A stretch of 64,000 nucleotides of DNA from a virus (Duplodnaviria; Heunggongvirae; Uroviricota; Caudoviricetes): the IMG/VR virus record IMGVR_UViG_3300033068_001655, one strand, 5' to 3'. A model generated the notes under the pieces. The model had not been told where the DNA came from. It did not search any database and was given only the letters and a program-made list of their open reading frames with translations. Both the position numbers and the translations under genes were made by a program. Shown piece after piece: positions 150 to 51,096 of the stretch (the first letter of the stretch is position 1; every line of letters begins with the position of its first letter).

Positions 150-262
150 ATATAGAGTAGATATGGCAACACTGGAAAATCCAGTACTCTCCATATTAGC
201 AGTGAGCAAGGGAATCGAACCCTATACATTTAAACGTACGTGCTGCTTTCCAGGCAGACCCA
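150..262 (-). pseudogene. Degenerate tRNA fragments (tRNA-Ser-like 3' T-arm/acceptor piece joined to a tRNA 5'-flank/start piece)
   Basis: The minus strand reads agggttcgattccc ttgctcact (T-arm + 3' acceptor strand) with no matching 5' acceptor. It is followed by aatatggagag, which copies the 5' flank and first 6 nt of tRNA-Ser at 1263-1275. The 206-228 segment resembles the 3' end of that tRNA-Ser. Confidence 0.35.
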
Positions 263-276
263 ATCACCATCATGGC

Positions 277-1113
277 TTACTCACTATTTTTTATAATATA
301 ATTTATTGTACTTCTTGAGACATTAAAATGTTTTGCAATATCAATTTGTTTTTTACCTTCACTATACATTTTAATAACATCTTCTTTATTAACTCTATTG
401 TATTTTATACCTAATTCATTTTTATATTTTTTTATTATATCACTTATTGTACCATTTGAGGCACTAAAATGTTTTGCAATATCAATTTGTTTTTTACCTT
501 CACTATACATTTTAATAACTAAATCTCTATCAATTTTATGTTGTTTTTCTTTATAATTTATTACTTTAGAATAGATTTCATGTTTATACTTATTATAAAA
601 ACTTATATCAGAGTGTTCTAATACATGACAGTTTGCACACAAAACATCACACTTATTAATTTCATCCTTTATTAGTTTAGAAAGATCATATATAGAGTTG
701 AATCTTTCACTAATACTACCTATTGAAAATTCCTTTTCGTTAGGATCTCTATGATGAAATGTTAAACTAGCAGGACATTTATTGTAACCACATTTTATAC
801 ATTCACTTCCACCATATTCTAAGTATATTAATTTAGATCTACTTCTTTCATTATTATCCTCATTGTAATGATGTTCTCTATGACAATTTTGACACAGTAT
901 AATACATTTATCTAATTCATTTTTTATTTTTGATAATCTATAATTTTTTGATTCTCCAAACTCAAAATCTTTATTATTTTTATCAATATGATGAAATGTT
1001 AACTGAAATATATTATTGTTTTGACAATTTTGGCATACACCATCTTTATTGTTTAATAATATAATTTTTTTTGCATATTTTAGTATTTTCTGTAATTTTA
1101 ATTTTTTTTCCAT
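277..1113 (-). CDS. HNH homing endonuclease with two tandem HNH motifs and two tandem C-terminal HTH repeats
   Basis: Two copies of the C-x2-C...FHH(I/R)D...N...LC-x-NCH-x-x-H pattern (HNH fold). The C-terminus carries a duplicated DVIKMYSEGKKQIDIAKHF helix-turn-helix. Sits next to the tRNA cluster. Confidence 0.7.
   Translation of the reverse strand: MEKKLKLQKILKYAKKIILLNNKDGVCQNCQNNNIFQLTFHHIDKNNKDFEFGESKNYRLSKIKNELDKCIILCQNCHREHHYNEDNNERSRSKLIYLEYGGSECIKCGYNKCPASLTFHHRDPNEKEFSIGSISERFNSIYDLSKLIKDEINKCDVLCANCHVLEHSDISFYNKYKHEIYSKVINYKEKQHKIDRDLVIKMYSEGKKQIDIAKHFSASNGTISDIIKKYKNELGIKYNRVNKEDVIKMYSEGKKQIDIAKHFNVSRSTINYIIKNSE
323..521. repeat. Perfect 56-bp direct repeat (323-378 and 466-521) inside the HNH gene, encoding the duplicated HTH
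   Basis: aaaatgttttgcaatatcaatttgttttttaccttcactatacattttaataac occurs twice, 143 bp apart. Confidence 0.85.
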
Positions 1114-1181
1114 TATTTCGATTATTTTATTTATATATTAAATAAACTAATCGAACTTTTCCAAATATGGATTTTTTATAG

Positions 1182-1269
1182 AAGAGAGCGAGGGATTCGA
1201 ACCCTCAACCCAGATTCCTCCGAGCTACCACTTTTCAAGAGTGGCTCTTCATCCAACCAGATGCTCTCC
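1182..1269 (-). tRNA. tRNA-Ser (anticodon UGA), type II with long variable arm
   Basis: Minus strand: ggagagc-at-ctgg..., anticodon arm ccact/cttgaaa/agtgg, long variable arm, T arm gaggg ttcgaat ccctc, acceptor gctctct. No encoded CCA. Confidence 0.85.
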
Positions 1270-1275
1270 ATATTG

Positions 1276-1347
1276 TGATTCCAGAGGGATTCGAACCCCC
1301 ATCTGATCGTTCGTAGCGACCTGTCCTATCCATTGAACGATGGAACC
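1276..1347 (-). tRNA. tRNA-Arg (anticodon ACG)
   Basis: Minus strand: ggttcca..., anticodon arm ggtcg/ctacgaa/cgatc, T arm tgggg gttcgaat ccctc, acceptor tggaatc. Confidence 0.85.
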
Positions 1348-1391
1348 AATTAAAAACAAAAAACCCTTGAACTTTTTTGGTTCAAGGGTTT
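1348..1391 (-). terminator. Rho-independent terminator / strong hairpin (12-bp stem aaacccttgaac/gttcaagggttt, then T-run on minus strand)
   Basis: Perfect 12-bp inverted repeat with a 7-nt loop. The minus strand continues tttgtttttaatt. Lies between the embedded protein gene and tRNA-Arg/Ser. Confidence 0.5.
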
Positions 1392-1565
1392 CAAATAACT
1401 TTTTACTGAAAAATTATGAATACACAAGAACCTCCCTCAATTTACTTGAGCGACTAGACGAACTTGACGATGTACTGATAATTGTTTTCATATTATTTAT
1501 ATATTATATTTTATTTCTTTGTTTATACAAAATTACAAACTTTTTTTAATTTAACCTAATTTTTT

Positions 1566-2756
1566 TTAACTTCTTAATTGAAATGTACCATTTGTCTCAT
1601 TTAACAAGAAGTGTCTTTTATCTGGTTGTTGAGTATATAAAGTTGCTGTATTTCCTTTATCCTCAACATTAAACACCATAAATCTAAAACTATCTAAATA
1701 TGGAAATGGTTTATTCATATCCACTTTAATTTTAGTTGTCATTTGTTGATTATTATTACCATTATAGTGAGATAATTTATACTCATTACTCTCTGCCCAT
1801 TTCTTAAATAAGTTTTGAATATGATCATTAGCATAAACACGATCCATATATTTACCTTTATCAGTTTCCCAAAGTAAACAACGTCCTATCAATTTATCCT
1901 CTGCATTAGTAAGAATTAGCATCTTAACATTATTATCTATATTCGTATAGATGTCAAAGAAATCTTGACATTGATTTAATCTCATACAAGAATTGTTTAA
2001 TGTACCACAACCTTTTGCATAATTTGCTTCCAAATACCATTTCTTAACTTCTTCACCTTCAACAACTTTGAAGTATTCAAAAGCATTTCTATCAAATGCA
2101 TTGTTTGATTTATATAAATTGACAAAAGTTTCAATGTCTTTCGCGTTAAATTTAACGTGTTTGTTGTTTTTTTGAATTTCAGTTAAAACTTTATTAAGAA
2201 ATCTACCGAACTTAATCTCAGTTGATTTTGTAGTACTATCATCAATTGATGGTCTTAATGCACTTATTTGTCTAAGACTGTCTGCATGAAGAATAGAAAA
2301 TTCTTTCTCTTGACCAACAGAAGTTAAATGTATGATTTTATAATCACCTTCATATCTACTCCAAGCAGGATATTCTGCAACAATTTTAAATTTAACACCT
2401 TGTGTACTATCTCCTTGGTTAAACCTTCCGTTAAAAAATACGTTTTTTGAATAACGGTTTTCGTCATTTGCTTCAATTCCTTCTGCTTGTAACATTTGTT
2501 TTAATGCCACTCTATAGATTTCATGATTTAAACCAACTACGGTTGGATTAGGAAGTGTGTATAAAAAGTTATCTTTAGAGACTTTACTACTATAAAATTT
2601 TACAGTATCATCATCTTTACCTTTGTCTACTGATAAAAAATCAGTTATTTTATAAGAATCACTTAAAAAATAACTTAGAATGTCCATCTGTTCACCAGTT
2701 GTACATTGATTCTGAATTGTTCTGATTATACTATGAAGTTGTTCTCCTATTAACAT
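1566..2756 (-). CDS. Hypothetical protein embedded in the tRNA cluster; paralog of the 29036-30226 protein
   Basis: Long ORF. Track start 2861 overlaps the tRNA 3' end, so start was moved to internal ATG at 2756 (396 aa, same length as its paralog). Shared C-terminal block IGRCLLWETDKGKYMDRVY versus IGRALLWTLDDGRQLMDTIY. Function unknown. Confidence 0.6.
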   Translation of the reverse strand: MLIGEQLHSIIRTIQNQCTTGEQMDILSYFLSDSYKITDFLSVDKGKDDDTVKFYSSKVSKDNFLYTLPNPTVVGLNHEIYRVALKQMLQAEGIEANDENRYSKNVFFNGRFNQGDSTQGVKFKIVAEYPAWSRYEGDYKIIHLTSVGQEKEFSILHADSLRQISALRPSIDDSTTKSTEIKFGRFLNKVLTEIQKNNKHVKFNAKDIETFVNLYKSNNAFDRNAFEYFKVVEGEEVKKWYLEANYAKGCGTLNNSCMRLNQCQDFFDIYTNIDNNVKMLILTNAEDKLIGRCLLWETDKGKYMDRVYANDHIQNLFKKWAESNEYKLSHYNGNNNQQMTTKIKVDMNKPFPYLDSFRFMVFNVEDKGNTATLYTQQPDKRHFLLNETNGTFQLRS

Positions 2757-2830
2757 ATTTGCTTGGTTTTTATTACTCGACAAAAGTAATAATAAGTTAT
2801 GAGTTATACAAATAAAATTTGATTTTTTTG

Positions 2831-2963
2831 GTAGAAAGGTGGGACTCGAACCCACAACCACGGCTTTAAAAGAGCGAAGTAACTTATTTCATTGCTACTA
2901 AATTTCTTTAGAGAAAGACTGATTAAGTATGATTACGTGCTCTACCAATTGAGCTACTTTCTA
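2831..2963 (-). tRNA. tRNA gene with ~60-nt internal insertion (putative intron or disrupted tRNA); isotype undetermined
   Basis: The 5' half tagaaag-ta-gctc aattggta gagc and the 3' half gtggg ttcgagt cccac ctttcta are perfectly complementary acceptor halves. They are separated by ~60 extra nt, and no intact anticodon arm exists in either half. Confidence 0.5.
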
Positions 2964-2969
2964 CATTTG

Positions 2970-3044
2970 TGGAGACTCCAGTTATCGAAGCTGGGTCGCA
3001 AGGGCCCTTCCGCCCTCCGCTCTACCATTCTGAGCTAAATCTCC
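2970..3044 (-). tRNA. tRNA-like gene with non-canonical anticodon loop (6-nt ggaagg loop, or 8-nt if the closing pair is open)
   Basis: Acceptor ggagatt/agtctcc and D arm gctc agaatggta gagc are canonical, with a T arm. The anticodon region agggc ggaagg gccct lacks U33. Possible pseudogene. Confidence 0.45.
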
Positions 3045-3049
3045 ATTTG

Positions 3050-3122
3050 TGGAGCCGACGGGTTACGATCCCGTTCCTCTGGATTTTCAGTCCAGCGCAA
3101 TGACCACATCTGCCACAGCTCC
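3050..3122 (-). tRNA. tRNA-Phe (anticodon GAA)
   Basis: Acceptor ggagctg/cggctcc, anticodon arm ctgga/ctgaaaa/tccag, T arm acggg..cccgt. Confidence 0.8.
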
Positions 3123-3129
3123 AATTTTG

Positions 3130-3202
3130 GGTGTAAGACGGGACTCGAACCCGCAATACCTTGGTTCACAACCAAGTGCTTTGACCATTAAGCTACCTAC
3201 AC
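3130..3202 (-). tRNA. tRNA-His (anticodon GUG), no encoded G-1
   Basis: Acceptor gtgtagg/cttacac, discriminator C, anticodon arm cttgg/ttgtgaa/ccaag, T arm gcggg ttcgagt cccgt. Confidence 0.75.
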
Positions 3203-3204
3203 AG

Positions 3205-3279
3205 TGACCCCGGTGGGGCTCGAACCCACGACCCCCTGATTAAAAGTCAGGTGCTCTAAACCAACTGAGCTACGAAGTC
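3205..3279 (-). tRNA. tRNA-Lys (anticodon UUU)
   Basis: Acceptor gacttcg/cggggtc, D arm gctc agttggttta gagc, anticodon arm cctga/cttttaa/tcagg, T arm gtggg ttcgagc cccac. Confidence 0.85.
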
Positions 3280-3288
3280 AAATTTTTG

Positions 3289-3361
3289 TTCTCCCGGTAG
3301 GGCTCGAACCTACGATCCATGCATTAAGAGTGCGTTGCTTTACCAACTCAGCTACAAGAGA
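3289..3361 (-). tRNA. tRNA-Lys (anticodon CUU), one C·A mismatch in the anticodon stem
   Basis: Acceptor tctcttg/cgggaga, anticodon arm acgca/ctcttaa/tgcat, T arm gtagg ttcgagc cctac. Confidence 0.6.
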
Positions 3362-3370
3362 ATTTTCTTG

Positions 3371-3456
3371 TTCCCCCTACAGGACTCGAACCTGTGACCC
3401 ATCGTTTAAAAGACGATTGCTCTAAGCTTAACGCAAACCAACTGAGCTAAGAGGGA
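3371..3456 (-). tRNA. tRNA-Lys (UUU)-like with ~11-nt insertion in the D-loop
   Basis: Acceptor tccctct/aggggga; anticodon arm atcgt/cttttaa/acgat and T arm acagg ttcgagt cctgt are perfect. The D region gctc agttggtt-tgcgttaagct-ta gagc is ~11 nt too long (86 nt total). Confidence 0.55.
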
Positions 3457-3464
3457 ATATATTG

Positions 3465-3535
3465 CACGCCCAAAAGGATTCGAACCTTTATCAACGGTTT
3501 TGGAGACCGTCATGCTACCGTTGCACCATAGGCGT
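3465..3535 (-). tRNA. tRNA-Trp (anticodon CCA)
   Basis: Acceptor acgccta/tgggcgt, anticodon arm acggt/ctccaaa/accgt, T arm aaagg ttcgaat ccttt. Confidence 0.85.
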
Positions 3536-3541
3536 ATGTTG

Positions 3542-3613
3542 TGCGGACTATCGGAATCGAACCGATCTCTTAGGTGCTTCAAACCTACGCTAAACCGTCT
3601 CAGCTAAATCCGC
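3542..3613 (-). tRNA. tRNA-Phe-like (anticodon GAA; loop ttgaagc)
   Basis: Acceptor gcggatt/agtccgc, anticodon arm taggt/ttgaagc/accta, T arm atcgg ttcgatt ccgat. Confidence 0.6.
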
Positions 3614-3624
3614 ATTATATTTTG

Positions 3625-3697
3625 TGGACCCTCAGGGAATCGAGCCCTGTCCTTTGGATTTTCAGTCCAACGTACGCACCAGCTATACGAAAGGTCC
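3625..3697 (-). tRNA. tRNA-Phe (anticodon GAA), paralog of the 3050-3122 gene
   Basis: Acceptor ggacctt/agggtcc, anticodon arm ttgga/ctgaaaa/tccaa, T arm caggg ctcgatt ccctg. Confidence 0.75.
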
Positions 3698-3777
3698 ATT
3701 ATTATTTTGGGTGCCCCTTATCTAGTATTTCTACCACAGGTAATCTTATCATATTCGGATTAAACCGAACCCCCTTG

Positions 3778-3850
3778 GGTGAAAGACGGGGATCGAACCC
3801 GCGACATCCAGAACCACAATCTAGCGCTCTACCACTGAGCTACAATCACC
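3778..3850 (-). tRNA. tRNA-His (anticodon GUG) with genomically encoded G-1 opposite C73; two U·U mismatches in the acceptor stem
   Basis: g-gtgattg-ta-gctc agtggta gagc, anticodon arm ctaga/ttgtggt/tctgg, T arm gcggg ttcgatc cccgt, acceptor 3' ctttcac + C. Confidence 0.65.
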
Positions 3851-3859
3851 ATATATTCG

Positions 3860-3932
3860 CACAAGCCAAGGGAGTCGAACCCTTTCCATCCGAGGTTTTG
3901 GAGACCTGGTGCATACCATTATGCTGACCTGT
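3860..3932 (-). tRNA. Degenerate tRNA-Trp-like (anticodon CCA) gene
   Basis: Acceptor acaggtc/ggcttgt and T arm aaggg ttcgact ccctt are sound, with anticodon loop ctccaaa. However position 8 is A, the D-loop is 4 nt, there is a C·C mismatch in the anticodon stem and the variable loop is 7 nt. Likely pseudogene. Confidence 0.4.
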
Positions 3933-3941
3933 ATTTTTTTG

Positions 3942-4014
3942 TTCCCCCGATGGGCCTCGAACCCACTACTCCTTGGTTAAAAGCCAAGTGCCCGTCCACA
4001 TGAGCTTCGAAGGA
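3942..4014 (-). tRNA. tRNA-Lys (anticodon UUU), third copy
   Basis: Acceptor tccttcg/cggggga, anticodon arm cttgg/cttttaa/ccaag, T arm gtggg ttcgagg cccat. Position 8 is A. Confidence 0.65.
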
Positions 4015-4017
4015 TTA

Positions 4018-4428
4018 TTAGTATTTCATAATTTCTCTTATAAATTCATCAATTGTATTGAATTTATTTTTTTTATATAATTTTAATATTTTTATTTTAG
4101 ATATATTACCATTTTTACTTTTTCTTCTATTGATAGAATGTTTTAAATTTTCTTGTTGTGTCAGACATTCTAAATTATTAACATTATTATTTTGTCGGTC
4201 ACCATCTATATGATTAACTTGTAAATCTTCACTATAATTATTAACAAATGTCATTGCTACAATTCTGTGTACAAGAAGCGTCTTTGACTTTTTATTATTT
4301 GTTAGACTCACATCCATATATCCTCTATTATTTAATCTTACTCTCATTATTCTATTTGTCTTTGTATTTATTATGACACCATCCTCATTTATAGAATAAT
4401 TTTCAAATCCTTTAATTTTTTTAAACAT
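4018..4428 (-). CDS. HNH homing endonuclease (NUMOD4 + HNH_3 type)
   Basis: N-terminal GFENYSINEDGVI (NUMOD4-like) and LVHRIVAMTF...VNHIDGDRQNNNVNNLECLTQQENLKH (HNH_3). Bounds the 5' side of the tRNA island. Confidence 0.75.
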   Translation of the reverse strand: MFKKIKGFENYSINEDGVIINTKTNRIMRVRLNNRGYMDVSLTNNKKSKTLLVHRIVAMTFVNNYSEDLQVNHIDGDRQNNNVNNLECLTQQENLKHSINRRKSKNGNISKIKILKLYKKNKFNTIDEFIREIMKY

Positions 4429-5566: not shown

Positions 5567-5770
5567 ATGCCTGCTAAATCGAGACAGCAATTAAAATACA
5601 TATTTGCGATGCGTCGTAAATATAAAAATAAAAAAAGTGCTCCTAAACATATGAAGTGGGTATTTAACAAAGATTGGACCCACAATGTCAAAGCATCGGG
5701 GTTACCAACCAAAGTTAAAAATTTTCAAACCTATATATCCGAGAATTATGATGCTACTACTAAAAAGTAG
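5567..5770 (+). CDS. Small basic protein, DUF3008-like (MPAKS...KxxGLPxKV)
   Basis: MPAKSRQQLKYIF...KASGLPTKVK resembles the phage DUF3008 family from memory. Converges on and overlaps the tyrS 3' end by ~25 nt. Confidence 0.4.
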   Translation: MPAKSRQQLKYIFAMRRKYKNKKSAPKHMKWVFNKDWTHNVKASGLPTKVKNFQTYISENYDATTKK

Positions 5771-6999
5771 TTTTTCTTACCTCTCTGAACTATAATAAAT
5801 TTGTCATTTATCAAATCACCATCAGTTACGATGTAGTTATCTTCTCTTTTTATTTTATTTATTGCAACAGAGTTTTCTTTTAAGGCTCTTCTTGCTTCAC
5901 TAACAGATTTTAAGAACCCAGTTTTAAATAAAATATCAGTCATTGATATACCATTTACAATATCTTTCATTGGAATATTTGCCATTGGTAATCCACTAAA
6001 TATATCTAAAATTGTTTCATTATCAAGTGAATTTAAGTTACCGTTATTGAATAGAATGTTTGATGCTTCTACTGCTTTGTTAAACTCTTCTTCACCATGA
6101 ACCATTATAGTGATTTCTTTAGCCAATGTTTTTTGTAATAAAAACAAATGTTTGGCTTTATTGTGTTCTTCTATTAAATTATCAATAGTTTCTTTATCTA
6201 AAAATGTAAAGATTTTAATAAATCTTTCTGCATCTGCATCATCAGTACTTACCCAAAATTGGAAAAACTTGTAAACAGATGTTTTATCTTTATCTAACCA
6301 TATATTCCCACCTTCTGATTTACCAAATTTTGTACCATCAGCTTTTGTTAAAAGAGGACAAGTCATTGCAAATGCTTCTCTACCTGGGAACATCTTATGT
6401 ATCAATTCAGTACCGGTTGTTATATTACCCCATTGATCAGAACCACCCATTTGTAATAAACAGTTATGTTCTTTATTAAGGTGTAAGAAATCGTACCCTT
6501 GAATCAATTGGTAAGTAAACTCTGTGAAAGACATACCTTCACCTTCAATACGGTTTTTTACAGACTGTTTTGATAACATGTAATTTACGGTAATTCTTTT
6601 ACCAATGTCTCTTACAAAGTCTATAAAACTAAACTTTGACATCCAATCGTAGTTGTTAAGAACTGGTGTATCACCTAAAAATCTGGTTAAAGTATTTTTT
6701 ATACCTTCTACATTTTTATTAAGTATTTCTTCATCTAAAAGATTTCTTTCAGAAGATTTACCAGAAGGGTCACCGATCATACCAGTAGCACCACCGACAA
6801 CTGCGATTGGATTATGTCCAAAGTTCTTCATGTGTTTTAACAGAATTATTGGAACTAAACTACCTATATGTAGAGAATCTGACGTTGGGTCAAATCCAAT
6901 ATAAGCGGTGGTGGCTTCTTTTAAAAGTTGAGCCTCCGTTCCGGGTATCATATCATGTACTAACCCACGCCATTTTAATTCTTCTACTATATTTTTCAT
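5746..6999 (-). CDS. tyrS: Tyrosyl-tRNA synthetase, bacterial type with C-terminal S4 domain
   Basis: HIGH-class motif DPTSDSLHIGSLVP, GGSDQWGNI, KMSKS-equivalent KFGKS, C-terminal S4-like region. Confidence 0.9.
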   Translation of the reverse strand: MKNIVEELKWRGLVHDMIPGTEAQLLKEATTAYIGFDPTSDSLHIGSLVPIILLKHMKNFGHNPIAVVGGATGMIGDPSGKSSERNLLDEEILNKNVEGIKNTLTRFLGDTPVLNNYDWMSKFSFIDFVRDIGKRITVNYMLSKQSVKNRIEGEGMSFTEFTYQLIQGYDFLHLNKEHNCLLQMGGSDQWGNITTGTELIHKMFPGREAFAMTCPLLTKADGTKFGKSEGGNIWLDKDKTSVYKFFQFWVSTDDADAERFIKIFTFLDKETIDNLIEEHNKAKHLFLLQKTLAKEITIMVHGEEEFNKAVEASNILFNNGNLNSLDNETILDIFSGLPMANIPMKDIVNGISMTDILFKTGFLKSVSEARRALKENSVAINKIKREDNYIVTDGDLINDKFIIVQRGKKNYFLVVAS

Positions 7000-7403
7000 T
7001 ATGCTAATACTTCTTTAATTACTTCTGATACAACTTTTCTATCCACTTGTGCAGTAGCAAACTCTTTCATAATTCCACCAACATTGGTAATCCCTGATGC
7101 TACAAGTGCATTAACTTTTACAACAACATCTTCTCTTGTCATAGCAGCTGGAAGTAAAGCTTCAACCATTTCTAATTGAACTACAGACTCAGCATCACCA
7201 GAAGTTGCAATAACTTCTTTAAGAGATTTCGCAGTTTTATTAAGAATTTTAATTACTTCTGCATCAGAAAGACAATCTACTCCTGTATTTTTCTCAATAG
7301 TTTGGATCTCTCCTTTTACCACAGAAAGTAAGTTTTTTGCTACAGCATTTTTCTCTTTGAAAGCTGTCATGTAGTCTTTGCTAATTTGCTCTTTTAAATT
7401 CAT
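6999..7403 (-). CDS. yqeY: GatB/YqeY domain protein
   Basis: MNLKEQISKDYMTAFKEKN...LLSVVKGEI matches the YqeY family. Its stop overlaps the tyrS start (operon). Confidence 0.7.
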   Translation of the reverse strand: MNLKEQISKDYMTAFKEKNAVAKNLLSVVKGEIQTIEKNTGVDCLSDAEVIKILNKTAKSLKEVIATSGDAESVVQLEMVEALLPAAMTREDVVVKVNALVASGITNVGGIMKEFATAQVDRKVVSEVIKEVLA

Positions 7404-9256: not shown

Positions 9257-9601
9257 TAAGTATAAATCATTTTGTCTAGCTTCTAATTCTGTTAAAAGAA
9301 AAACACATTCTCTTCTTAAATCTTTAAGTTTTAAAAAATCTGAGGTATTACTTACTTTAGATAATTGATCGTTAAGATTATCAATCTCAATTTTTATCAT
9401 ATCTATCATTAAGCTCATTTCTTTGATTATATCACCTTTTAAATCAAGTACTAAGGATTTAAAATAAGGATTTATCATAATAATTCCTTTATAATCACTA
9501 GAAGTAAAATTCTTCATGATTCTTTTAAGTATTTCTATGACTTCATCCTCAGTACCTGAAAGGTGTAGTTTATCGAGATATTCTAATAAGCTTAACTTCA
9601 T
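9248..9601 (-). CDS. Hypothetical protein
   Basis: 117-aa ORF. Confidence 0.4.
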   Translation of the reverse strand: MKLSLLEYLDKLHLSGTEDEVIEILKRIMKNFTSSDYKGIIMINPYFKSLVLDLKGDIIKEMSLMIDMIKIEIDNLNDQLSKVSNTSDFLKLKDLRRECVFLLTELEARQNDLYLLF

Positions 9602-10452
9602 ATCATCTTTTTACATTTATATATAAGACTGCTACTAAATCCTTTTTTTAATATATCCTTGATTGAGTAACCATCTTTTAACAAACCTTTTACCAATTCT
9701 TTTTTATCAGATTTTAATAACTTATCTTCTATTCTATCCCACTTTCTAGACATTATTGGTAGATTTAAACGAACACATTGTTCTTTAATATCTTTAAGTA
9801 TATTATACTTTGATATAAAGATAATTGAACAATTTTCATATATTTTTGCATCTTTAGTTTCCTTAGTTAAATGAGTATAGAAATATTCTAATATAGAAGA
9901 CCAAGATTCATGACATTTAATTATCAATCTACCTTTTTTATTAATAGAGCCATCACCGTCAATAAACCCTATTATTAAACTAAATAATTGTTCATCATTT
10001 AACCAATTAGGTAGTATAGGAGGTATTTTAGTTTTATTGGATTTCCAATTAAAATCTCTAGTAATTTTATCTATAGTTATTTTATCAGATAAAACTACAC
10101 TAATTCTACTTTCATTTTCATATACTTTTACATGACCCAAATGATCTGTTATTTTTAATATATGTAATCTATCCTTAGTTGATATATTTATTTGTATTCT
10201 TTTATCTTTTGTAATATGTCCATCTGCTAACATAAACCCCAACCAATAACAAGAAATATTATCATATTCTATTAATTTGGAATATTTAAAACTATTATTG
10301 TTTTCATTAAAACTTCTTTTTATTTTAAAAAAATGTGCTTTCTTTTGTATATAGTTCCAAGATAATCCTAAATCAGTAATAATAGTTTCTTTACTTGAAG
10401 ATGGATAATTTTCTTTTAAATAGTTCTCTAACTTTGTTTTAGTGTGTCTCAT
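9598..10452 (-). CDS. LAGLIDADG homing endonuclease (double-motif, free-standing)
   Basis: YWLGFMLADGHI and LIIGFIDGDGSI motifs. TAATATATAGT motif ~20 nt upstream of the ATG. Confidence 0.8.
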   Translation of the reverse strand: MRHTKTKLENYLKENYPSSSKETIITDLGLSWNYIQKKAHFFKIKRSFNENNNSFKYSKLIEYDNISCYWLGFMLADGHITKDKRIQINISTKDRLHILKITDHLGHVKVYENESRISVVLSDKITIDKITRDFNWKSNKTKIPPILPNWLNDEQLFSLIIGFIDGDGSINKKGRLIIKCHESWSSILEYFYTHLTKETKDAKIYENCSIIFISKYNILKDIKEQCVRLNLPIMSRKWDRIEDKLLKSDKKELVKGLLKDGYSIKDILKKGFSSSLIYKCKKMI

Positions 10453-10470: not shown

Positions 10471-10914
10471 CTATATATTAATATTTAGATTTCTCTTTAG
10501 ATCTAATTTAATATCTCTTGCTTTAATATCTTCTTTTTTATCCCAAGTTTTCTTACCTTTAGCAACTGCTATTTTTATTTTTATACGGTTATGTTTAATA
10601 AACATACCCAGTGGAATTGCGGTCGTACCTTTATCTTCCAATTTTCTTTTGATTCGAGTAATTTCTTTTTTATTTAAAAGAAGTTTCTTATCACGATTTT
10701 CTTCGTGTTTATCTAAAGTGTGTGCTGACTTATAAGGAGCGACTTTTAGATTTTTAATCCAAACTTCATTATCCTTTATATAAATGAAAGCATCCACCAG
10801 AGTCACATTACCCATTCTAACTGACTTTACTTCACTACCAACCAATACAATACCACAATCAATCTCTTCTAAAAAGATATAATCGTATCTGGCTCTTCTA
10901 TTTAATGCTATCAT
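10471..10914 (-). CDS. smpB: SsrA-binding protein SmpB (trans-translation factor)
   Basis: ALNRRARYDY...GSEVKSVRMGNV...KKLLLNKKEI...GMFIKHNRIKIKIAVAKGKKTWDKKEDIKARD aligns along its full length to bacterial SmpB. Confidence 0.85.
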   Translation of the reverse strand: MIALNRRARYDYIFLEEIDCGIVLVGSEVKSVRMGNVTLVDAFIYIKDNEVWIKNLKVAPYKSAHTLDKHEENRDKKLLLNKKEITRIKRKLEDKGTTAIPLGMFIKHNRIKIKIAVAKGKKTWDKKEDIKARDIKLDLKRNLNINI

Positions 10915-13055: not shown

Positions 13056-13195
13056 TATTTTTTCTTTTTGATGTTTAAAACTTGTGCTACGTGGTCATTT
13101 ATTACTCTAACAGGAGTATCAGAAGAAGTCTGATTTACATCCTTTACTTCTTCTGATTGTTCTTCTGTTGTTTTTGTTTCTTTGTCTTTATTCAT
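13055..13195 (-). CDS. Small 46-aa ORF translationally coupled on both sides (TAATG overlaps)
   Basis: MNKDKETKTTEEQSEEVKDVNQTSSDTPVRVINDHVAQVLNIKKKK. Its ATG overlaps the sigma-factor stop and its stop overlaps the next ATG. Not in the track (under 60 aa). Confidence 0.35.
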   Translation of the reverse strand: MNKDKETKTTEEQSEEVKDVNQTSSDTPVRVINDHVAQVLNIKKKK

Positions 13196-13797
13196 TAGTC
13201 TAAATACATTTCATCTATTTGATCAAACTCTTTCTTAGATTGTTCCATCAAAATCTGACGACCGTTTCTAATTTGAGATTTTATTGTAGATAAATTTTTT
13301 CCTAACTTATCCGCAATGTCTTTATATTGCATTCTTTCAATCTCTCTCATTATAATAACTGTCTTATACGGTTCTTTTAATTCAGAGATATGTTTTTTCA
13401 TTACGTCTGCTTTTTGTGAGAAAACATCATAAACTGCTTCATTACTTTCTGTTTCTTGTATAAAGTCTTTTAAAGTAGTTCCTTCATCATCAAACTCAAT
13501 GTCTAATGATATGTTTCTGTTTTCAAGTTTTTTATCTTGTAAAGATAAGTTTTTTGCGATTGTGAATAACCACGTTGAAAATTGTGATTTTTCTTTTTGA
13601 TACATTTCTATTTTTTCCAGTGCTATCATAAATGAGTCTGTTGAAATGTCTTCAGCTTTTTGTACATCATTACAAATTCTTGATGTAAAGTAGATTAGTT
13701 TTGGGTAATACTTTTGATAAAGTGTTGCGAAATCTTTACCAGTTCTTTCTTTAAAAATTTTCTCTTGTTCAGAGAATGGGGTTGTGCTTAATTCCAT
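13195..13797 (-). CDS. RNA polymerase sigma factor, sigma-70 family (ECF-like, regions 2 and 4)
   Basis: Region 2 FATLYQKYYPKLIYFTSR...AEDISTDSFMIALEKI...FSTWLFTIAKN and region 4 YKTVIIMREIERMQYKDIADKLGKNLSTIKSQIRNGRQIL. Confidence 0.8.
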   Translation of the reverse strand: MELSTTPFSEQEKIFKERTGKDFATLYQKYYPKLIYFTSRICNDVQKAEDISTDSFMIALEKIEMYQKEKSQFSTWLFTIAKNLSLQDKKLENRNISLDIEFDDEGTTLKDFIQETESNEAVYDVFSQKADVMKKHISELKEPYKTVIIMREIERMQYKDIADKLGKNLSTIKSQIRNGRQILMEQSKKEFDQIDEMYLD

Positions 13798-26548: not shown

Positions 26549-27637
26549 ATGACAAACGAAATTTTAAACCCAGAATTAGGAAACCCAGATTTCGAGCTTT
26601 TATTCGAGGAAAAAAGCTATAGAAAGGGTAAAAATATGAGTGATAAAGATCTTGATGCTCTTTATAGCTCTATTAAATTAGAAGTGCCACAAGTAGGTAA
26701 TGTGGTTAGATCTAAATACCAAGGTATTATGGCAAATCAGTTTGTATTTAGCGTTGACGGATTCAAAGATGATGTTAGAGTTGAAGACAAACCAGGTGAA
26801 GCTAAATACCTTAAAAATTGCAACACTGGAGATGAGGTTGATGTTTTAATTACCGAGATAAATCACGGTCAATATTTCATCAAAGGAAGTATAGCTTCTT
26901 TATATGAGTCAAGAGCTCACGAAAACCTTAAATCTCTAGAGGAAGGAGAATCAGTAACTGCCTACGTTAGAGCACTTAACCCAGCTGGTTATGATGTTGA
27001 GATTACAAATGGAGGAGTAACTCTTCCAGGATTTATGCCAAATACCTTAGCAGGTATCAACAAACTTTACGACCCAACTTCAATTGTTGGAGATACGTTC
27101 CAAGTTATGATTGAGTCTTTCTCAGAACATGAAGGAACTTATATCGTAAGTCGTAGAAAATACTTACAAACTTTAATTCCAGAAGAAATTAGTAATCTTG
27201 AGTTTAATGTGTTGTATAGTGGTAGAGTAACTGGAACAACACCATTTGGTATCTTTGTCGAGTTCAACGAGTGTTTAACTGGTATGATTCACAAAGCAAA
27301 TGTGACTGAAGAGTGGCAAAACAGAATCTCCGAAATTAAACCAGGACAAGAGATTGAGTTCTTTATTAAAGAAATCATTAAGGAGAAAATTATCCTTACT
27401 CAAGTTCTGAGAGAAACACTTTGGGACACCATCAAAAACGGTCAATTGATCGATGGTAAAGTAAAAGATGTTAAGCAATTTGGAGCTTTAGTTATCTTAG
27501 ATGATGAAACAGTTGGATTAGTCCACACATCAGAAATGGAGAAACTTGGTAGAAAGCTTACATCTGGACAGGACATCAAAGTAAAAGTTTTATCAGTTGA
27601 TAGACAAAGTCGTAAAATTTTTCTTACAATTGGATAA
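26549..27637 (+). CDS. Multi-S1-domain RNA-binding protein (ribosomal protein S1-like)
   Basis: Three S1 repeats recognised, including C-terminal GKVKDVKQFGALVILDDETVGLVHTSEM...GQDIKVKVLSVDRQSRKIFLT. Confidence 0.7.
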   Translation: MTNEILNPELGNPDFELLFEEKSYRKGKNMSDKDLDALYSSIKLEVPQVGNVVRSKYQGIMANQFVFSVDGFKDDVRVEDKPGEAKYLKNCNTGDEVDVLITEINHGQYFIKGSIASLYESRAHENLKSLEEGESVTAYVRALNPAGYDVEITNGGVTLPGFMPNTLAGINKLYDPTSIVGDTFQVMIESFSEHEGTYIVSRRKYLQTLIPEEISNLEFNVLYSGRVTGTTPFGIFVEFNECLTGMIHKANVTEEWQNRISEIKPGQEIEFFIKEIIKEKIILTQVLRETLWDTIKNGQLIDGKVKDVKQFGALVILDDETVGLVHTSEMEKLGRKLTSGQDIKVKVLSVDRQSRKIFLTIG

Positions 27638-37926: not shown

Positions 37927-38670
37927 TTATTTATTTAGTTGGTTAAAAATTGTTTGCATTCCGTTTGTAGCAACATCTTCAATGTGATGAAAATACGGTA
38001 ATTTATAATCTGGTATATCATACATCAACATATCTATTTTAGAAGGTTCGATGTAATATACAGGAGTTTTAAAATCTGTTAAAAATGGAATTTCATTTGC
38101 AGGAGATACTTGTAATGATGTACCAACAATTATACAGAAGTCACATTCTTCTGCAGCTTTTACTGCAGTATTTACATCAGAACTATCTAATTCTTCACCA
38201 AACCATACAATGTGTGGTCGTAGTTGAGAACCAGTTTTCTGACATTTATCACCTATTTTTATTTCTCCGTATCCTATATCAATAATTGTATCTAATGGAC
38301 TTGTTTTATGTGTGTACATACAACCTCTTGCTTTAGTTAGTTCACCGTGTAAGTGAATAACATTGGTAGAACCTGCTCTTTCATGTAGGTCGTCAACATT
38401 CTGAGTAACTACTGTTACATCAAAATTTTCTTCTAGTTTGGCAATTAGTTCGTGTGCTAAGTTTGGCACAACATCTTTTAACTGTGCTCTTCTTTGATTA
38501 TAAAAATCTAAAACTAACTCTCGGTCTTTTCGCCATGCACCTGGTGTGGCGACATCTTCAATCCTATGGTTATTCCATAAGCTCTCGGTAGAATCTCTAA
38601 ATGTTTCGATTCCACTTTCTTTTGAAACTCCTGCTCCAGTAAATACTAATATTTTTTTTCTTTCATTCAT
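37927..38670 (-). CDS. Sir2-family NAD-dependent protein deacylase (CobB-like)
   Basis: FTGAGVSKESGIETFRD, QNVDDLHERAG, Cys zinc ribbon. Confidence 0.8.
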   Translation of the reverse strand: MNERKKILVFTGAGVSKESGIETFRDSTESLWNNHRIEDVATPGAWRKDRELVLDFYNQRRAQLKDVVPNLAHELIAKLEENFDVTVVTQNVDDLHERAGSTNVIHLHGELTKARGCMYTHKTSPLDTIIDIGYGEIKIGDKCQKTGSQLRPHIVWFGEELDSSDVNTAVKAAEECDFCIIVGTSLQVSPANEIPFLTDFKTPVYYIEPSKIDMLMYDIPDYKLPYFHHIEDVATNGMQTIFNQLNK

Positions 38671-48800: not shown

Positions 48801-51096
48801 TTCTGATACTTATCAAATGGATAAAGAAATCGGACAGGGAAATATAGCACCATTTTTATCTAATACTACTTTATTATCAGACTTAGTTTATACTAATGGA
48901 GTTCCTACTATTTATGGTACATGGACTTTATTTATAAAGTATAATCCACTTGCAGTAAATGTTTGTGATTTAGTTAATTGGTCTATTGATATACAATATA
49001 AACACTTAATTATTGAGGATAATGAACCAACTGTGTCATTCCCTATATTGAATTTTAACAATCTTAATTATGATATAACAACTCAATTGTCATGGTATGA
49101 TGATGTACAAATTTATAAAAGAATGAACTATCTACCTATACAAAATAATGTTAATCATTTATTGACACAAAATACATTTAGATTAGACTCTGTTGAATTA
49201 GCAACTCCTGCTAGATGGGGTGGCTTTGGTAAAAATCAAAAAACTAAAAAGTATGAGTATTTCTATAATAAAACTGATATGATGTTAAGTATCAATGGAA
49301 ATGGTGCAACTGGTGGTAGTACATCAATGGTTATATTAGATAATCTTAATATGTATGAGGTTGATATGATTCCATTCTTTAAATACTTTGATACACCTAA
49401 TATTTATAAAGGTGTTGTATTTCCTTATATTGGAATATCACCTGAAATAGATTACACAAATTCAGACTTTGTATTTATTGACAATATTACAATTGGTTTA
49501 GATAGTATTAACCCAGTGGCAGTTGATACTACATTTATTGATTGTGGGACTGCATCATCTGCAACTCTACAACTTAGTGCAAGTATAAATGGATTAGTCA
49601 CACCACCACTTTCTTGGACTACATCATCATACCAGTTTGTAAATATGTCAAATAGTAATACACCTGGTTCAGTAACTTGTTCTACAACATTTGATTCGAT
49701 CAGTTGGACTATTACCCCGTTATTATCTGGATTACCTCCAGTTACAATTTCTAATGCAAATAGTTTATATCCATCAGTATTAGGGTTGACTGCAAGTGGT
49801 GAATATAGTGTAGAGATTACAAGTCTAATTAAAAATGGACCACCATCTCAAGCAATTGGTTTACTTAATAATGGTGTATCAATTAAAGCAACTATTAAAG
49901 TGAATCCTAAACCGACTACAATAATTAATATTCAACCATTGGCACTACAATTTGATTTTGTACCTGGTGATGCAGTATCTCATATTATAGATGAGACTAA
50001 CTTATTGAATAATTACTCAAATAGTAATAATAATAATCCAAGTGCATTTGTTATAGAAAGTTTACCAATTGGAAGTTTATTTTATAATGGTGTGTCAATC
50101 ACATCAGTTCCTTTTGGACCTATCGCAATTGTAAGTGGTTCTATACCTGGTTTATTGTATTACCCAGAGGGTAATCCGCCATTAGTTCCACAAGCAGCTT
50201 CTTTTAGTACATCATTCGACTATACAATTATTGATAATGAGAATAATCCTTATACTACAACAATGCTAATTGTTGCTACAATACTACCTTCTACTATAAT
50301 AGTAGATACACCATTATCTAAATCGATAAATTATAGTTTTAATGAAAGTAATTTACAAGCAACAAAATACTTTAATGAGGTTGATTTAGTTCAAAATTAC
50401 ATTAATACTCCTAATGGTACACCTGCGAATCATATTAAAATTTATAGTGTACCATCAACAGGTGAGTTATCATATAATGGTACCCTAGTGTCTGTAAATG
50501 ATGTAATACCTTATATTGATCTAATTAGTGGTGCTCACTTTGCTTATCATCCACAAGGAATAAACCGTTTAGATACTACAGGTGGTAATTTTAATACAAC
50601 ATTCACATATACTGTATTAGATCCTCAGTCTAATGAAAGTAACTTAGTTACTTTTACTTTAAACTGTACTCAAATTTTAGTAATAAATGGATTTACATTA
50701 GGTCCATATGGTACTATGTATAATCCAGGAGGATTATCAGGAGGTAATACAAGTCATGACTTACTTTTAGGATATCCTTCAAATACGGCAATACTAAAAT
50801 GGAAGGCAACATATACATTAGTTGCTGAAACATATACAGATGCAAGAGTTGCATTTTCTACAAATGATTCTACACCTGCAGTGGTAACGTTGTGGTATGA
50901 TTTTAATGAGGTTAATGGACAAACACCAGGTATTCATTATACAGCTTGGAGAACACTAATACCTTCTTCTGCGGTATATGGTAATCCTATTTCTTGTTTA
51001 TTAAGAAGTAACAATGGACATACTATAACAATTACTGTACAAGCATTAGATTCAAGTAATAATATCCTAGGAACTTATACATTTACATCACCATAA
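45871..51096 (+). CDS. Giant (1741 aa) fibre/adhesin-like protein sharing the W-x-N-G repeats
   Basis: IWENGVWNNGW, WLSGGFFNGYFSGVWNNGLFKG, WIDGLFDGGHF repeats; TAATATATAGTTT directly upstream of the ATG. Confidence 0.6.
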   Translation: MPFIDTNIAPSWTYDANLGGIKRIVLNDTNIKFIKNTVNSTYNFTQLKNYQFVTGITGSVALGTFSVRFRPPFTTNTINLRSSVLTNGGVEFYTYNSPNNTLASNTLLSYGSDNSFTQSVIKSTKVNELSFLINGFREFSYLDRDIATSSQPSGWFYGIAPGDFDPSYNFFLSSSTSSISPSYSTLGSGLNTVSNKNFIAKYIEYDTFNLEYSFYTSTPVNMSMYLLTLDNLGTPANWASHIVATFSTTGTYSNLGLVGTNYDGTKNYLVFSCEAVFNTGVNYTLNSNGDSVLTDIYSKLSNIEIYGTYHPTSNNRLSLTDTTTSPIGLSISNAAYSYTLLNNGGTFSIPSRIGNGAFRSGIWENGVWNNGWRDDTNTKDFDDVYISVLTASDVSWKIEIRGATTAIDGFATGSNVSIGNIVAIDINDNRKLLKDYYQIESLGVDAGDPQNGVAPYGWIRVNLDTSFPYRRIEKDSPNHKIKVTKNIWLSGGFFNGYFSGVWNNGLFKGYPLLTEMFDSHWIDGLFDGGHFNSTYSNNYDFIGIGPKVACSNNFMDLIFASSSTTPFLQGDYIFLTLYDIGEVFLTGSDLYSGVCQIVDVKVDTEPLMSDNNGGFIPNPNFMYQTITINKRSIGLPKYFDTNAPAGYAYRYTATSVIQNFKFYDNNRSKIKSSDSQLSNAVFSFNSWIDVNYDDTRSVTLGRDFRVYEPLTKKSVSRNNLFGYPTYDILSSASRFRDSNSLDTKLYKLGTKYKVFNDFIGDYSKFNEPFSDLDFGSFISAGWTYSYANTSDFKIKRTESLITLNDSQSTALLNSGVTGDELYITASNTGIILNNSNVNIEKSRYSVVEFDVVTYSVPNTIYTYDNPDIYQKRSISNVGLSFSETTNTVDAYITSSYNLVGSPTFSVGDIVVMVDIYGDVPGTTINLKAPNGKIVNLKKVGTGLGSRMNQTRFSFRDIYDRFSYITTPYSLNNTTIAYSDTYQMDKEIGQGNIAPFLSNTTLLSDLVYTNGVPTIYGTWTLFIKYNPLAVNVCDLVNWSIDIQYKHLIIEDNEPTVSFPILNFNNLNYDITTQLSWYDDVQIYKRMNYLPIQNNVNHLLTQNTFRLDSVELATPARWGGFGKNQKTKKYEYFYNKTDMMLSINGNGATGGSTSMVILDNLNMYEVDMIPFFKYFDTPNIYKGVVFPYIGISPEIDYTNSDFVFIDNITIGLDSINPVAVDTTFIDCGTASSATLQLSASINGLVTPPLSWTTSSYQFVNMSNSNTPGSVTCSTTFDSISWTITPLLSGLPPVTISNANSLYPSVLGLTASGEYSVEITSLIKNGPPSQAIGLLNNGVSIKATIKVNPKPTTIINIQPLALQFDFVPGDAVSHIIDETNLLNNYSNSNNNNPSAFVIESLPIGSLFYNGVSITSVPFGPIAIVSGSIPGLLYYPEGNPPLVPQAASFSTSFDYTIIDNENNPYTTTMLIVATILPSTIIVDTPLSKSINYSFNESNLQATKYFNEVDLVQNYINTPNGTPANHIKIYSVPSTGELSYNGTLVSVNDVIPYIDLISGAHFAYHPQGINRLDTTGGNFNTTFTYTVLDPQSNESNLVTFTLNCTQILVINGFTLGPYGTMYNPGGLSGGNTSHDLLLGYPSNTAILKWKATYTLVAETYTDARVAFSTNDSTPAVVTLWYDFNEVNGQTPGIHYTAWRTLIPSSAVYGNPISCLLRSNNGHTITITVQALDSSNNILGTYTFTSP

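Follow-up and report, generated by a model that had tools for sequence, protein, structure and literature searches.

Are two transfer RNA (tRNA) genes with misshapen loops, both lying in the tRNA array of a phage, decaying copies or functional RNAs of unusual build? The question is raised by the genes at positions 2969-3044 and 3371-3456 (minus strand) of the IMG/VR record IMGVR_UViG_3300033068_001655, a stretch of 64,000 nucleotides (nt) of Caudoviricetes DNA that was analysed at its full length and is referred to below as the window. An earlier note, prepared from the same DNA, had described the former gene (given there as 2970-3044) as a tRNA with an aberrant anticodon loop and the latter as a tRNA-Lys with an enlarged D-loop, and had offered pseudogenes or, for the former, a frameshift suppressor as possible readings. 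Both genes were recovered at these coordinates as non-canonical tRNAs. The explanation that we favour, with a probability of roughly 0.6, is that the lysine gene specifies a decoding tRNA whose D-loop hairpin hinders nucleases, and that the other gene, designated here by its loop sequence GGAAGG, gives rise to a non-decoding tRNA-like RNA.

The objection that the odd structures might be sequencing errors was settled by comparison with DNA from other samples. Two Logan contigs (L001 and L003) were 100% identical to the window over both genes, and contig L002, which was 99.7% identical overall, carried a copy of the GGAAGG gene with the same sequence. Because independent assemblies carry identical DNA, sequencing error was excluded.

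Structure of the lysine tRNA gene

The gene at 3371-3456 (minus strand; 86 nt) reads TCCCTCT TA GCTC AGTTGG TTT(GCGTTAAGCTT)A GAGC A ATCGT CTTTTAA ACGAT GGGTC ACAGG TTCGAGT CCTGT AGGGGGA A. It has the anticodon UUU at 3408-3410 and discriminator A73, and the CCA end is not encoded. The features of the RF00005 cloverleaf are present, with acceptor, D, anticodon and T stems of 7, 4, 5 and 5 base pairs (bp), a 7-nt anticodon loop CTTTTAA containing U33, a T-loop TTCGAGT with T54/A58, and the G53-C61 pair. The D-loop, which reads AGTTGG-TTT-GCGTTAAGC-TT-A, measures 21 nt and lies outside the canonical range of about 7-11 nt. When aligned over its full length to the Rfam tRNA model (53.3 bits), the gene showed 14 D-loop nt where the model has one.

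A canonical tRNA-Lys(UUU) in the same array (3204-3279, minus strand; called by ARAGORN; 70 bits in Rfam; D-loop AGTTGGTTTA) served as the reference. Comparison of the two genes confirmed the 11-nt insertion reported in the earlier note and placed it, as a clean insertion of GCGTTAAGCTT, at 3424-3434 (minus strand), between U20b and A21. The palindrome noticed within this insertion is present as well, although its true extent is the 8-mer TAAGCTTA and not ttaagctta. The inserted nucleotides can form a GC/GC stem, possibly extended by a G.A pair, which closes GTTAA and is bordered on both sides by U-rich linkers. The gene is the third Lys(UUU) gene of the array and was missed by ARAGORN in its default run. 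An alternative ARAGORN call, a tRNA-Leu(tag) with a 9-nt intron, was rejected, as the Lys cloverleaf pairs perfectly and covaries.

A recurrent class of hairpin-bearing tRNA-Lys

The earlier note had suggested that the same variants be sought in related phages, and the Lys insertion was found in nearly all related arrays. Insertion-bearing orthologues were present in L007, L009-L012, L016, L018-L020, L022, L023, L055 and L078, which comprise nearly every related phage fetched. The insert reads GCGTAAGC in L007, GCGTTAAGC in L016, L022 and L023, GCGAAAGC in L055, and GCATTATGC in L009, L010-L012, L018-L020 and the IMG/VR contig L078. The anticodon loop CTTTTAA, D arm, T arm and acceptor stem of the orthologues were unchanged, and their anticodon stems (ATCGT/ACGAT, ACCGT/ACGGT, ACCGA/TCGGT and CCTAG/CTAGG) differed in a compensated manner.

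For a wider survey, the pattern TAGCTCAGTTGG-N10-16-TAGAGC was scanned over IMG/VR and over one genome per prokaryotic species, yielding matches in IMG/VR contigs of 54-411 kilobases (kb) and in two contigs of Bacteroidota metagenome-assembled genomes (MAGs). Almost all of the viral matches that folded as tRNAs were tRNA-Lys(UUU), each with a hairpin in the D-loop and with very different acceptor, anticodon and T stems. The inserts equivalent to that of the window were GC-GTAA-GC, GCA-TTA-TGC, GC-GAAA-GC, GAC-GAAA-GTC, GGA-GAAA-TCC, GGC-GAAA-GCC, GTC-GAAA-GAC and GATG-GCAA-CATC; one tRNA-His carried the hairpin GCC-GAAA-GGC. Both MAG matches were Lys(UUU) genes (L102, GC-GTTA-GC; L107, TC-GTAA-GA, within an array of 13 tRNAs), and both contigs look like phage DNA.

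Alignment of 15 distinct hairpin tRNAs showed acceptor, D, anticodon and T stems that were 100% paired, the invariance of the D stem being imposed by the search pattern, and 18 pairs that had changed on both sides. These values were reached by 0 of 500 shuffles, and slid registers were paired to about 45%. Because MAFFT aligned the hairpin columns in varying registers (68.9% paired), the hairpin stems were read sequence by sequence; in the 12 distinct inserts they were 2-4 bp long, differed in sequence and were always paired. Shuffle tests on single hairpins were uninformative, as stems of 2-3 bp are common by chance, and were replaced by a test for GNRA loops across inserts. In 9 of the 12 inserts, two or more Watson-Crick pairs closed a GNRA tetraloop, compared with 0.15 expected from composition-preserving shuffles, and nine such inserts were obtained in 0 of 200,000 simulations (P < ~1e-5).

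Specificity for Lys(UUU) was seen in 13 of 14 hairpin tRNAs. This bias is not a side effect of the pattern, because these D-arm words were also seen together with a normal loop, among the fetched loci, in tRNAs of at least 12 other specificities. Bacterial class II lysyl-tRNA synthetase (LysRS) recognises the anticodon UUU, especially U35, together with discriminator A73, and both elements were present in all hairpin-bearing Lys tRNAs (13/13). Canonical Lys(UUU) genes share arrays with the hairpin versions. The hairpin genes were overlooked by ARAGORN or received the labels Leu, Gly, Ser, Glu or '???', which means that phage Lys tRNAs are undercounted.

At the level of sequence, these comparisons show that the window gene belongs to a recurrent class, in which a mini-hairpin of 2-4 bp, usually with a GNRA loop and U-rich linkers, is placed after G18 G19 U20 and before A21. 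Judged by the same alignments, the gene is a working type of tRNA-Lys(UUU) and not a pseudogene. The class is widespread and apparently undescribed: no account of a D-loop hairpin in a phage tRNA-Lys was found in the full-text literature searched, a negative limited to that literature. A blastn search of GenBank phages with the 34-nt D arm and with two whole tRNAs returned only ordinary tRNA-Lys genes of 71-74 nt, and an exact 18-mer search of IMG/VR with the Lys insert returned nothing.

A tRNA-like gene with a closed anticodon arm

The GGAAGG gene (2969-3044, minus strand) has the sequence GGAGATT TA GCTC AGAATGGTA GAGC G GAGGG-C-GGAAGG-G-CCCTT GCGAC CCAG-C-TTCGATA-A-CTGG AGTCTCC A. Its acceptor stem (GGAGATT/AGTCTCC) and D arm are normal, and G18 G19 and T54-A58, which belong to the RF00005 features, are present. 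The T arm, which had been regarded as equally normal, is not: position 53:61 is a C.A mismatch, and the stem is reduced to 4 bp. Direct reading of the anticodon arm (3000-3017, minus strand) agreed with what had been proposed. It is composed of the 5' strand GAGGGC (3012-3017), the loop GGAAGG (3006-3011) and the 3' strand GCCCTT (3000-3005), giving a 6-bp stem and a 6-nt loop, or an 8-nt loop CGGAAGGG if the closing C:G pair opens. The canonical 7-nt loop with U33 is missing, and position 33 is a G. ARAGORN classified the gene (2969/2970-3044) as tRNA-??? with the 4-base anticodon 'gaag'. The Rfam tRNA model scored it at 40.9 bits when it was searched alone (gathering score 29) and missed it in searches over 6 kb and 64 kb. 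The minimum-free-energy structure predicted by RNAfold was a cloverleaf, in which the T arm was folded into a 4-bp stem with a 9-nt loop. In both known versions of the gene, the predicted anticodon arm had 6 bp in its stem and 6 nt in its loop.

Only these two versions were found, spread over at least five phage lineages. Version A (window, L001-L003) reads ...GAGC G GAGGG C GGAAGG G CCCTT GCGAC CCAG C TTCGATA A CTGG..., and version B (L009, L013, L014, L022 and L142) reads ...GAGC A AAGGG T GGAAGG A CCCTT GGAC CCAG A TTCGATA A CTGG.... Between A and B the loop-closing pair changes from C:G to T:A and the pair at the base of the stem from G.T to A:T, while the six loop bases, all of them purines, are identical; the G53-C61 pair is missing from both (C.A in the window, A.A in version B). 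The covariation of the closing pair from C:G to U:A favours the closed 6-bp stem with a 6-nt loop over the open 8-nt loop, although the compensating change is suggestive only. The versions are 92% identical, compared with 74-76% DNA identity of the adjacent protein gene, which makes selection on the GGAAGG gene likely. The gene always occupies the same slot, immediately 5' of a tRNA-like gene of 131-135 nt. In terms of its sequence and predicted pairing, it is shown by these data to be a conserved tRNA-like gene with a closed anticodon arm and intact acceptor and D arms. An exact search of IMG/VR with the 18-mer of the anticodon arm gave one chance match without a tRNA (L004).

Shortened anticodon loops were also observed in tRNA-like genes from other arrays of phages and Bacteroidota MAGs (L054 7373-7446, L107 5500-5571, L063 7410-7494, L077 3528-3614 and L129 275-360). 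Among the shortened forms are GTAACG, with 6 nt, and a UGGC tetraloop on a stem of 6 bp; CTGTTC/ATGTTA/CTGTTT, which are likewise 6-nt loops, occur in genes in which part of the D arm (12 nt) is duplicated. Phage tRNA clusters with such RNAs therefore recur.

Proposed roles

Defences that cut tRNAs (PrrC, RloC, PARIS, retron effectors, Cas13 and Schlafen-like nucleases) are seen as a major arm of anti-phage immunity, with phage tRNAs as the counter-measure, and tRNA-Lys(UUU) is the classic target of PrrC and PARIS AriB. Positions 20a and 20b belong to the variable pocket, which forms the outer corner of the tRNA L-shape; a short hairpin at this site should therefore project into solvent and leave the contacts of G18/G19 with the T-loop intact. 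Since the UUU anticodon and A73 are kept, the hairpin tRNA-Lys would be charged by LysRS and would decode AAA/AAG. Host defence nucleases whose target is tRNA-Lys(UUU) and which also read the D-loop may be hindered by the hairpin at the outer corner, or may not accommodate it, and translation could then continue after the destruction of host tRNA-Lys. We infer a shield against host nucleases cutting tRNA-Lys(UUU) as its favoured function. PARIS AriB cuts tRNA-Lys(UUU), with its second monomer modelled on U16-U17 of the D-loop, and cleavage is impaired by a U16C change; the tRNA-Lys of phage T5 has a C at this position (PMC12409363). Phage tRNA-Lys overcomes PrrC (PMC11555353), and T5 tRNA-Lys(UUU) is reported to neutralise PARIS AriB (PMC11464382).

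In the orthologous arrays (window, L006-L022, L055 and L056), anticodon stems were found to differ by 0.27 per site and T stems by 0.10 per site, always in a compensated manner; as membership of a tRNA family was defined on the acceptor and D stems, only the anticodon stem and the T stem are fairly comparable. The roughly threefold faster divergence of the anticodon stem fits pressure from enzymes reading the anticodon arm. Also in line with a shield, T4 Rnl1 is the enzyme that repairs PrrC-cut tRNA-Lys, and a T4 Rnl1-type RNA ligase (PF09511, E = 1.8e-16) is encoded in L102 (824-1960, minus strand), about 240 nt from the hairpin tRNA-Lys(UUU) of this 286 kb contig, which is labelled as a Bacteroidales MAG. 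A tblastn search over the other fetched loci found no homologue of this ligase.

The GGAAGG RNA would probably be processed by RNase P and the CCA-adding enzyme, yet is unlikely to decode, and may serve, without decoding, as a decoy or a binding RNA. That it is a processed but non-decoding tRNA-like RNA is proposed here with modest confidence. A more specific version of the scheme, in which the hairpin is an armour or self-mark against nucleases that read the elbow and D-loop and the GGAAGG RNA is a decoy titrating a tRNA-targeting defence protein, is speculative and, taken as a whole, doubtful. If it were true, phages would remodel tRNA architecture, beyond the sequence of the loops, in the arms race over tRNAs. 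The known escapes consist of exchanged bases in the D-loop or the anticodon arm; a D-loop hairpin that covaries, is capped by GNRA and is nearly restricted to Lys(UUU) across many unrelated large phages would add a solution of a new type. If a hairpin is tolerated at 20b/21, this site would also be of interest to tRNA engineers as an attachment point.

Several observations weigh against the combination of a nuclease-hindering tRNA-Lys and a selected, non-decoding GGAAGG RNA. The hairpin of the window itself is the weakest of its class (2 bp, with a GTTAA loop that is not GNRA), and AriB is modelled at U16-U17, whereas the hairpin lies at the opposite side of the D-loop (20b/21). In L021, the Lys gene is broken by an 11-nt deletion that takes the 3' half of the anticodon stem, so that the gene is dispensable in this lineage, the sole exception of its kind. 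Because the D-stem sequence was fixed in the scan, only a narrow section of the class was sampled. For the GGAAGG gene, the probability of one compensating double change among six random substitutions was roughly estimated at ~0.04, with only two versions to compare. The upstream promoter spacer is also 85-88% conserved, and identical copies in several lineages could have arisen through recent cassette exchange and not through selection. The slot of the gene is empty in L006, L010-L012, L015-L017, L021, L023, L055 and L056, in which the long tRNA-like gene comes right after a normal tRNA-Phe, and the GGAAGG gene was absent from IMG/VR in scans with looser patterns.

Alternative explanations

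That both genes are decaying pseudogenes in a fast-shuffling array, as the earlier note had considered, is improbable. Decay would fit a mosaic and polymorphic array, in which L002 swaps a block of tRNAs and lacks an HNH gene, as well as the truncated Lys copy in L021 and a GGAAGG gene that is devoid of U33 and the 53:61 pair and absent from many relatives. For the Lys gene, however, this reading fails on the perfect stem pairing in all 15 homologues, the many compensating changes, and a hairpin that recurs and covaries across unrelated phages. For the GGAAGG gene taken by itself, a pseudogene is a possible, if doubtful, explanation, set against conservation that exceeds that of the neighbouring coding gene, stem changes that keep the pairing, and the compensated loop-closing pair. 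Scarcely credible is the suggestion that this gene encodes a +1 frameshift-suppressor or quadruplet tRNA, with an 8-nt loop and an anticodon GAAG reading CUUC. ARAGORN does read a loop of this size and a 4-base anticodon, 8 nt are likewise unpaired in the Rfam alignment, and one extra loop nucleotide is present in the suppressors sufD, sufJ and sufA6 (PMC4238358); yet the first and last bases of the putative loop covary as Watson-Crick pairs (C:G to U:A), and the closed-pair fold is the structure of minimum free energy. In addition, a G replaces the conserved U-turn nucleotide at position 33, the 53:61 pair is broken, and close relatives with the same flanking genes in the same order are without the tRNA. 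Adjacent open reading frames (ORFs) showed only short overlaps, and two downstream genes, SmpB and DnaJ, matched their families from the first residues, in a non-exhaustive check of 64 kb of a larger genome.

The D-loop insert might alternatively be a short spliced intron of the archaeal non-canonical type, removal of which would leave an ordinary mature tRNA-Lys. This is very improbable, and an intron-splicing pathway of this kind is not known in bacteria. A hairpin with about 3 unpaired nt on each side does loosely resemble a bulge-helix-bulge, and introns in the D-loop are reported for archaea (PMC4090602, PMC3241643). The central helix of the phage inserts, however, varies from 2 to 4 bp and is not a fixed 4-bp helix, the flanks are U-rich and unpaired without outer helices, and the combination of GNRA caps with U linkers fits a stable structural module. 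Neither a splicing endonuclease nor an RNA ligase turned up among the 45 ORFs scanned with PHROGs or Pfam, which cover part of the window. It is also conceivable, albeit rather unlikely, that the hairpin is a handle for a phage-encoded factor (a modification enzyme, synthetase or repair enzyme), or that its GNRA loop docks on an RNA and marks the phage tRNA-Lys. GNRA loops are classical docking modules, the phage encodes translation proteins of its own (TyrRS, YqeY, SmpB and an S1-domain protein), and the Rnl1-type ligase adjoins the hairpin tRNA in L102. No candidate partner was linked to the hairpin across loci, the ligase being confined to L102 by tblastn, and the class spans very different phages, so that a shared partner would need an equal spread. 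A hairpin tRNA-Lys that decodes and hinders nucleases, next to a GGAAGG RNA that does not decode, is the explanation we retain.

The tRNA array and its source

The window is AT-rich (31% G+C over the first 6 kb). Its proteins include a tyrosyl-tRNA synthetase (TyrRS), an NAD-dependent DNA ligase, an SbcC-like protein and HNH endonucleases, as well as YqeY, SmpB, a sigma-70-type factor, a LAGLIDADG protein, an S1-domain protein, CoaE, Sir2 and DnaJ. Genes of the translation and host-takeover type (TyrRS, YqeY, SmpB, sigma-70-like, S1-domain, Sir2 and DnaJ) are located at 5746-7403, 10471-10914, 13195-13797, 26549-27637, 37927-38670 and 51075-51809. No transfer-messenger RNA was found in the window, although SmpB is encoded there. 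A protein of 396 amino acids (1566-2756, minus strand) adjoins the array and best matched 634-735 kb 'uncultured phage' records and Cellulophaga phages, at 30-34% identity. Based on these matches, the source of the window is a huge phage, probably with a host among the Bacteroidota. One related contig measures 400 kb, and one relative is labelled as an activated-sludge metagenome.

The tRNA genes of the window are confined to the minus strand and to positions 199-4014. The array with both odd genes (2830-4014, minus strand) was called by ARAGORN as Lys(UUU) (two), Lys(CUU), Phe(GAA) (three), His(GUG) (two), Trp(CCA) (two) and the GGAAGG gene. Orthologues of the 396-residue neighbour protein were graded from 83% down to 56% identity, and their contigs were compared. 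The position of the array between TyrRS and the gene for this protein was constant in all relatives, as was the order of a Gad2-like nucleotidyltransferase, thioredoxin, SmpB, YqeY, TyrRS, small ORFs, the tRNA array with homing endonucleases, the 396-residue protein, and Arg and Ser tRNAs. The arrays of the relatives are mosaics of few tRNA 'cassettes', mainly Lys, Phe, His and Trp, with several structurally distinct genes per anticodon. A blastn search of GenBank phages with the array gave only generic tRNA matches and no close relative. Scans of IMG/VR for relatives of the 396-residue protein gave none, or only paralogues of at most 37% identity, and a scan of Joint Genome Institute (JGI) metagenomes gave only 5 loci.

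Genes for homing endonucleases were located at 277-1113, 4018-4428 and 9598-10452 (all minus strand), two of the HNH type adjoining tRNAs and one of the LAGLIDADG type between an ORF on the TyrRS side and SmpB. The near-identical contig L002 lacks the segment 288-1326 of the window, with one HNH gene and the Arg and Ser tRNAs, and has five other tRNAs in its place; the array is therefore polymorphic within one phage species. Three tRNA genes scored weakly (Ser-like, Trp and Lys, at 199-284, 3859-3932 and 3941-4014, all minus strand). The Ser(GGA)-like gene (35.5 bits) is overlapped at its 5' end by the stop of an HNH ORF. The Trp(CCA) gene, whose score does not reach the threshold of the Rfam tRNA model, is 100% conserved in sequence in L009, L018, L021 and L055. 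The Lys(UUU) gene (41.2 bits) has a poor D arm.

Other unusual RNAs of the arrays

The long tRNA-like gene next to the GGAAGG gene measures 134 nt in the window (2830-2963, minus strand) and 131-135 nt in every relative. Its acceptor stem covaries (TAGAAAG/CTTTCTA, TAGAAGG/CCTTCTA and TAGAGAG/CTCTCTA), and both the D arm and the T arm have the canonical form. Between these arms lie about 60 nt of conserved extra sequence, with two candidate anticodon loops, CAU/UAU and UUU/GUU. ARAGORN called the gene Stop(tta), Met(cat) or Ile(tat) with an 'intron' of 51-62 nt, and RNAalifold detected covariation only in the acceptor stem.

In several families of Phe, His and Lys tRNAs (window 3049-3122, minus strand; L006, L007, L013, L055 and L056), the T-loop reads ATCGTNN and not TTCGANN, that is, T54/A58 are swapped together to A54/T58; sister copies of the same family keep TTCGA. 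By sequence, the swap looks like covariation of a tertiary pair, and it would also remove the usual site of 5-methyluridine at position 54. A conserved element of about 70 nt (3698-3776, minus strand) directly follows the tRNA-His at 3777-3849 and occurs in L007, L021 and L055 as well. It holds a hairpin TTCGG-TTTAAT-CCGAA and ends in GGGGCACCC, like the acceptor end of a His tRNA, and was called by neither ARAGORN nor Rfam. Inserts of 12-19 nt in the variable region were present in tRNAs that normally belong to the short class I, namely Arg(ACG) (87 nt), His(GUG) (89 nt), Trp(CCA) (87 nt) and Gly(UCC) (89 nt). The tRNAs with variable-region inserts are located at L002 1846-1932, L013 7552-7638, L016 846-934, L018 9769-9857, L010 8528-8614 and L015 10244-10332.

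Comparison with known systems

The tRNA cluster of phage T4 reportedly yields two stable RNAs, 'species 1 and 2' (rnaC and rnaD), which are said to be tRNA-like small RNAs without an assigned function. They resemble the GGAAGG gene and the 134-nt gene, and not the Lys gene, in being tRNA-like, located in a phage tRNA cluster and presumably co-processed, with no relation in sequence. The frameshift suppressors sufD, sufJ and sufA6 share with the GGAAGG gene one extra nucleotide in the anticodon arm (18 instead of 17 nt), but in them U33 is retained and the loop stays open, with 32 and 38 in a non-Watson-Crick contact (PMC4238358), whereas the GGAAGG gene has G33, Watson-Crick covarying loop ends and a defective T arm. 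The archaeal non-canonical tRNA introns are like the D-loop insert in their size of ~11-20 nt and their location at non-anticodon positions (PMC4090602, PMC3241643). They require a splicing endonuclease and a bulge-helix-bulge, composed of two 3-nt bulges, a 4-bp helix and flanking helices, a motif that the D-loop insert does not form.

The closest parallel to the proposed function is provided by the tRNA-Lys(UUU) of T5 acting against PARIS AriB, and by phage tRNA-Lys acting against PrrC (PMC11464382, PMC12409363, PMC11555353). In these cases, as in the window, a phage encodes a tRNA-Lys(UUU) beside that of the host, in a region rich in tRNAs, and both T5-type tRNA-Lys and hairpin tRNA-Lys depart from the standard body at places that nucleases may read, the D-loop included. 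T5 makes use of base substitutions such as C16, whereas the window gene has a whole hairpin inserted at 20b/21. In architecture, the hairpin tRNA-Lys resembles the class II tRNAs (Leu, Ser and Tyr), which likewise bear an extra, covarying stem-loop on a solvent-exposed part of the molecule and leave the core undisturbed. In class II tRNAs this arm is formed by the variable region, whereas in the window gene it is placed in the D-loop, is much shorter, at 2-4 bp, and goes with Lys(UUU), a tRNA that normally counts as class I.

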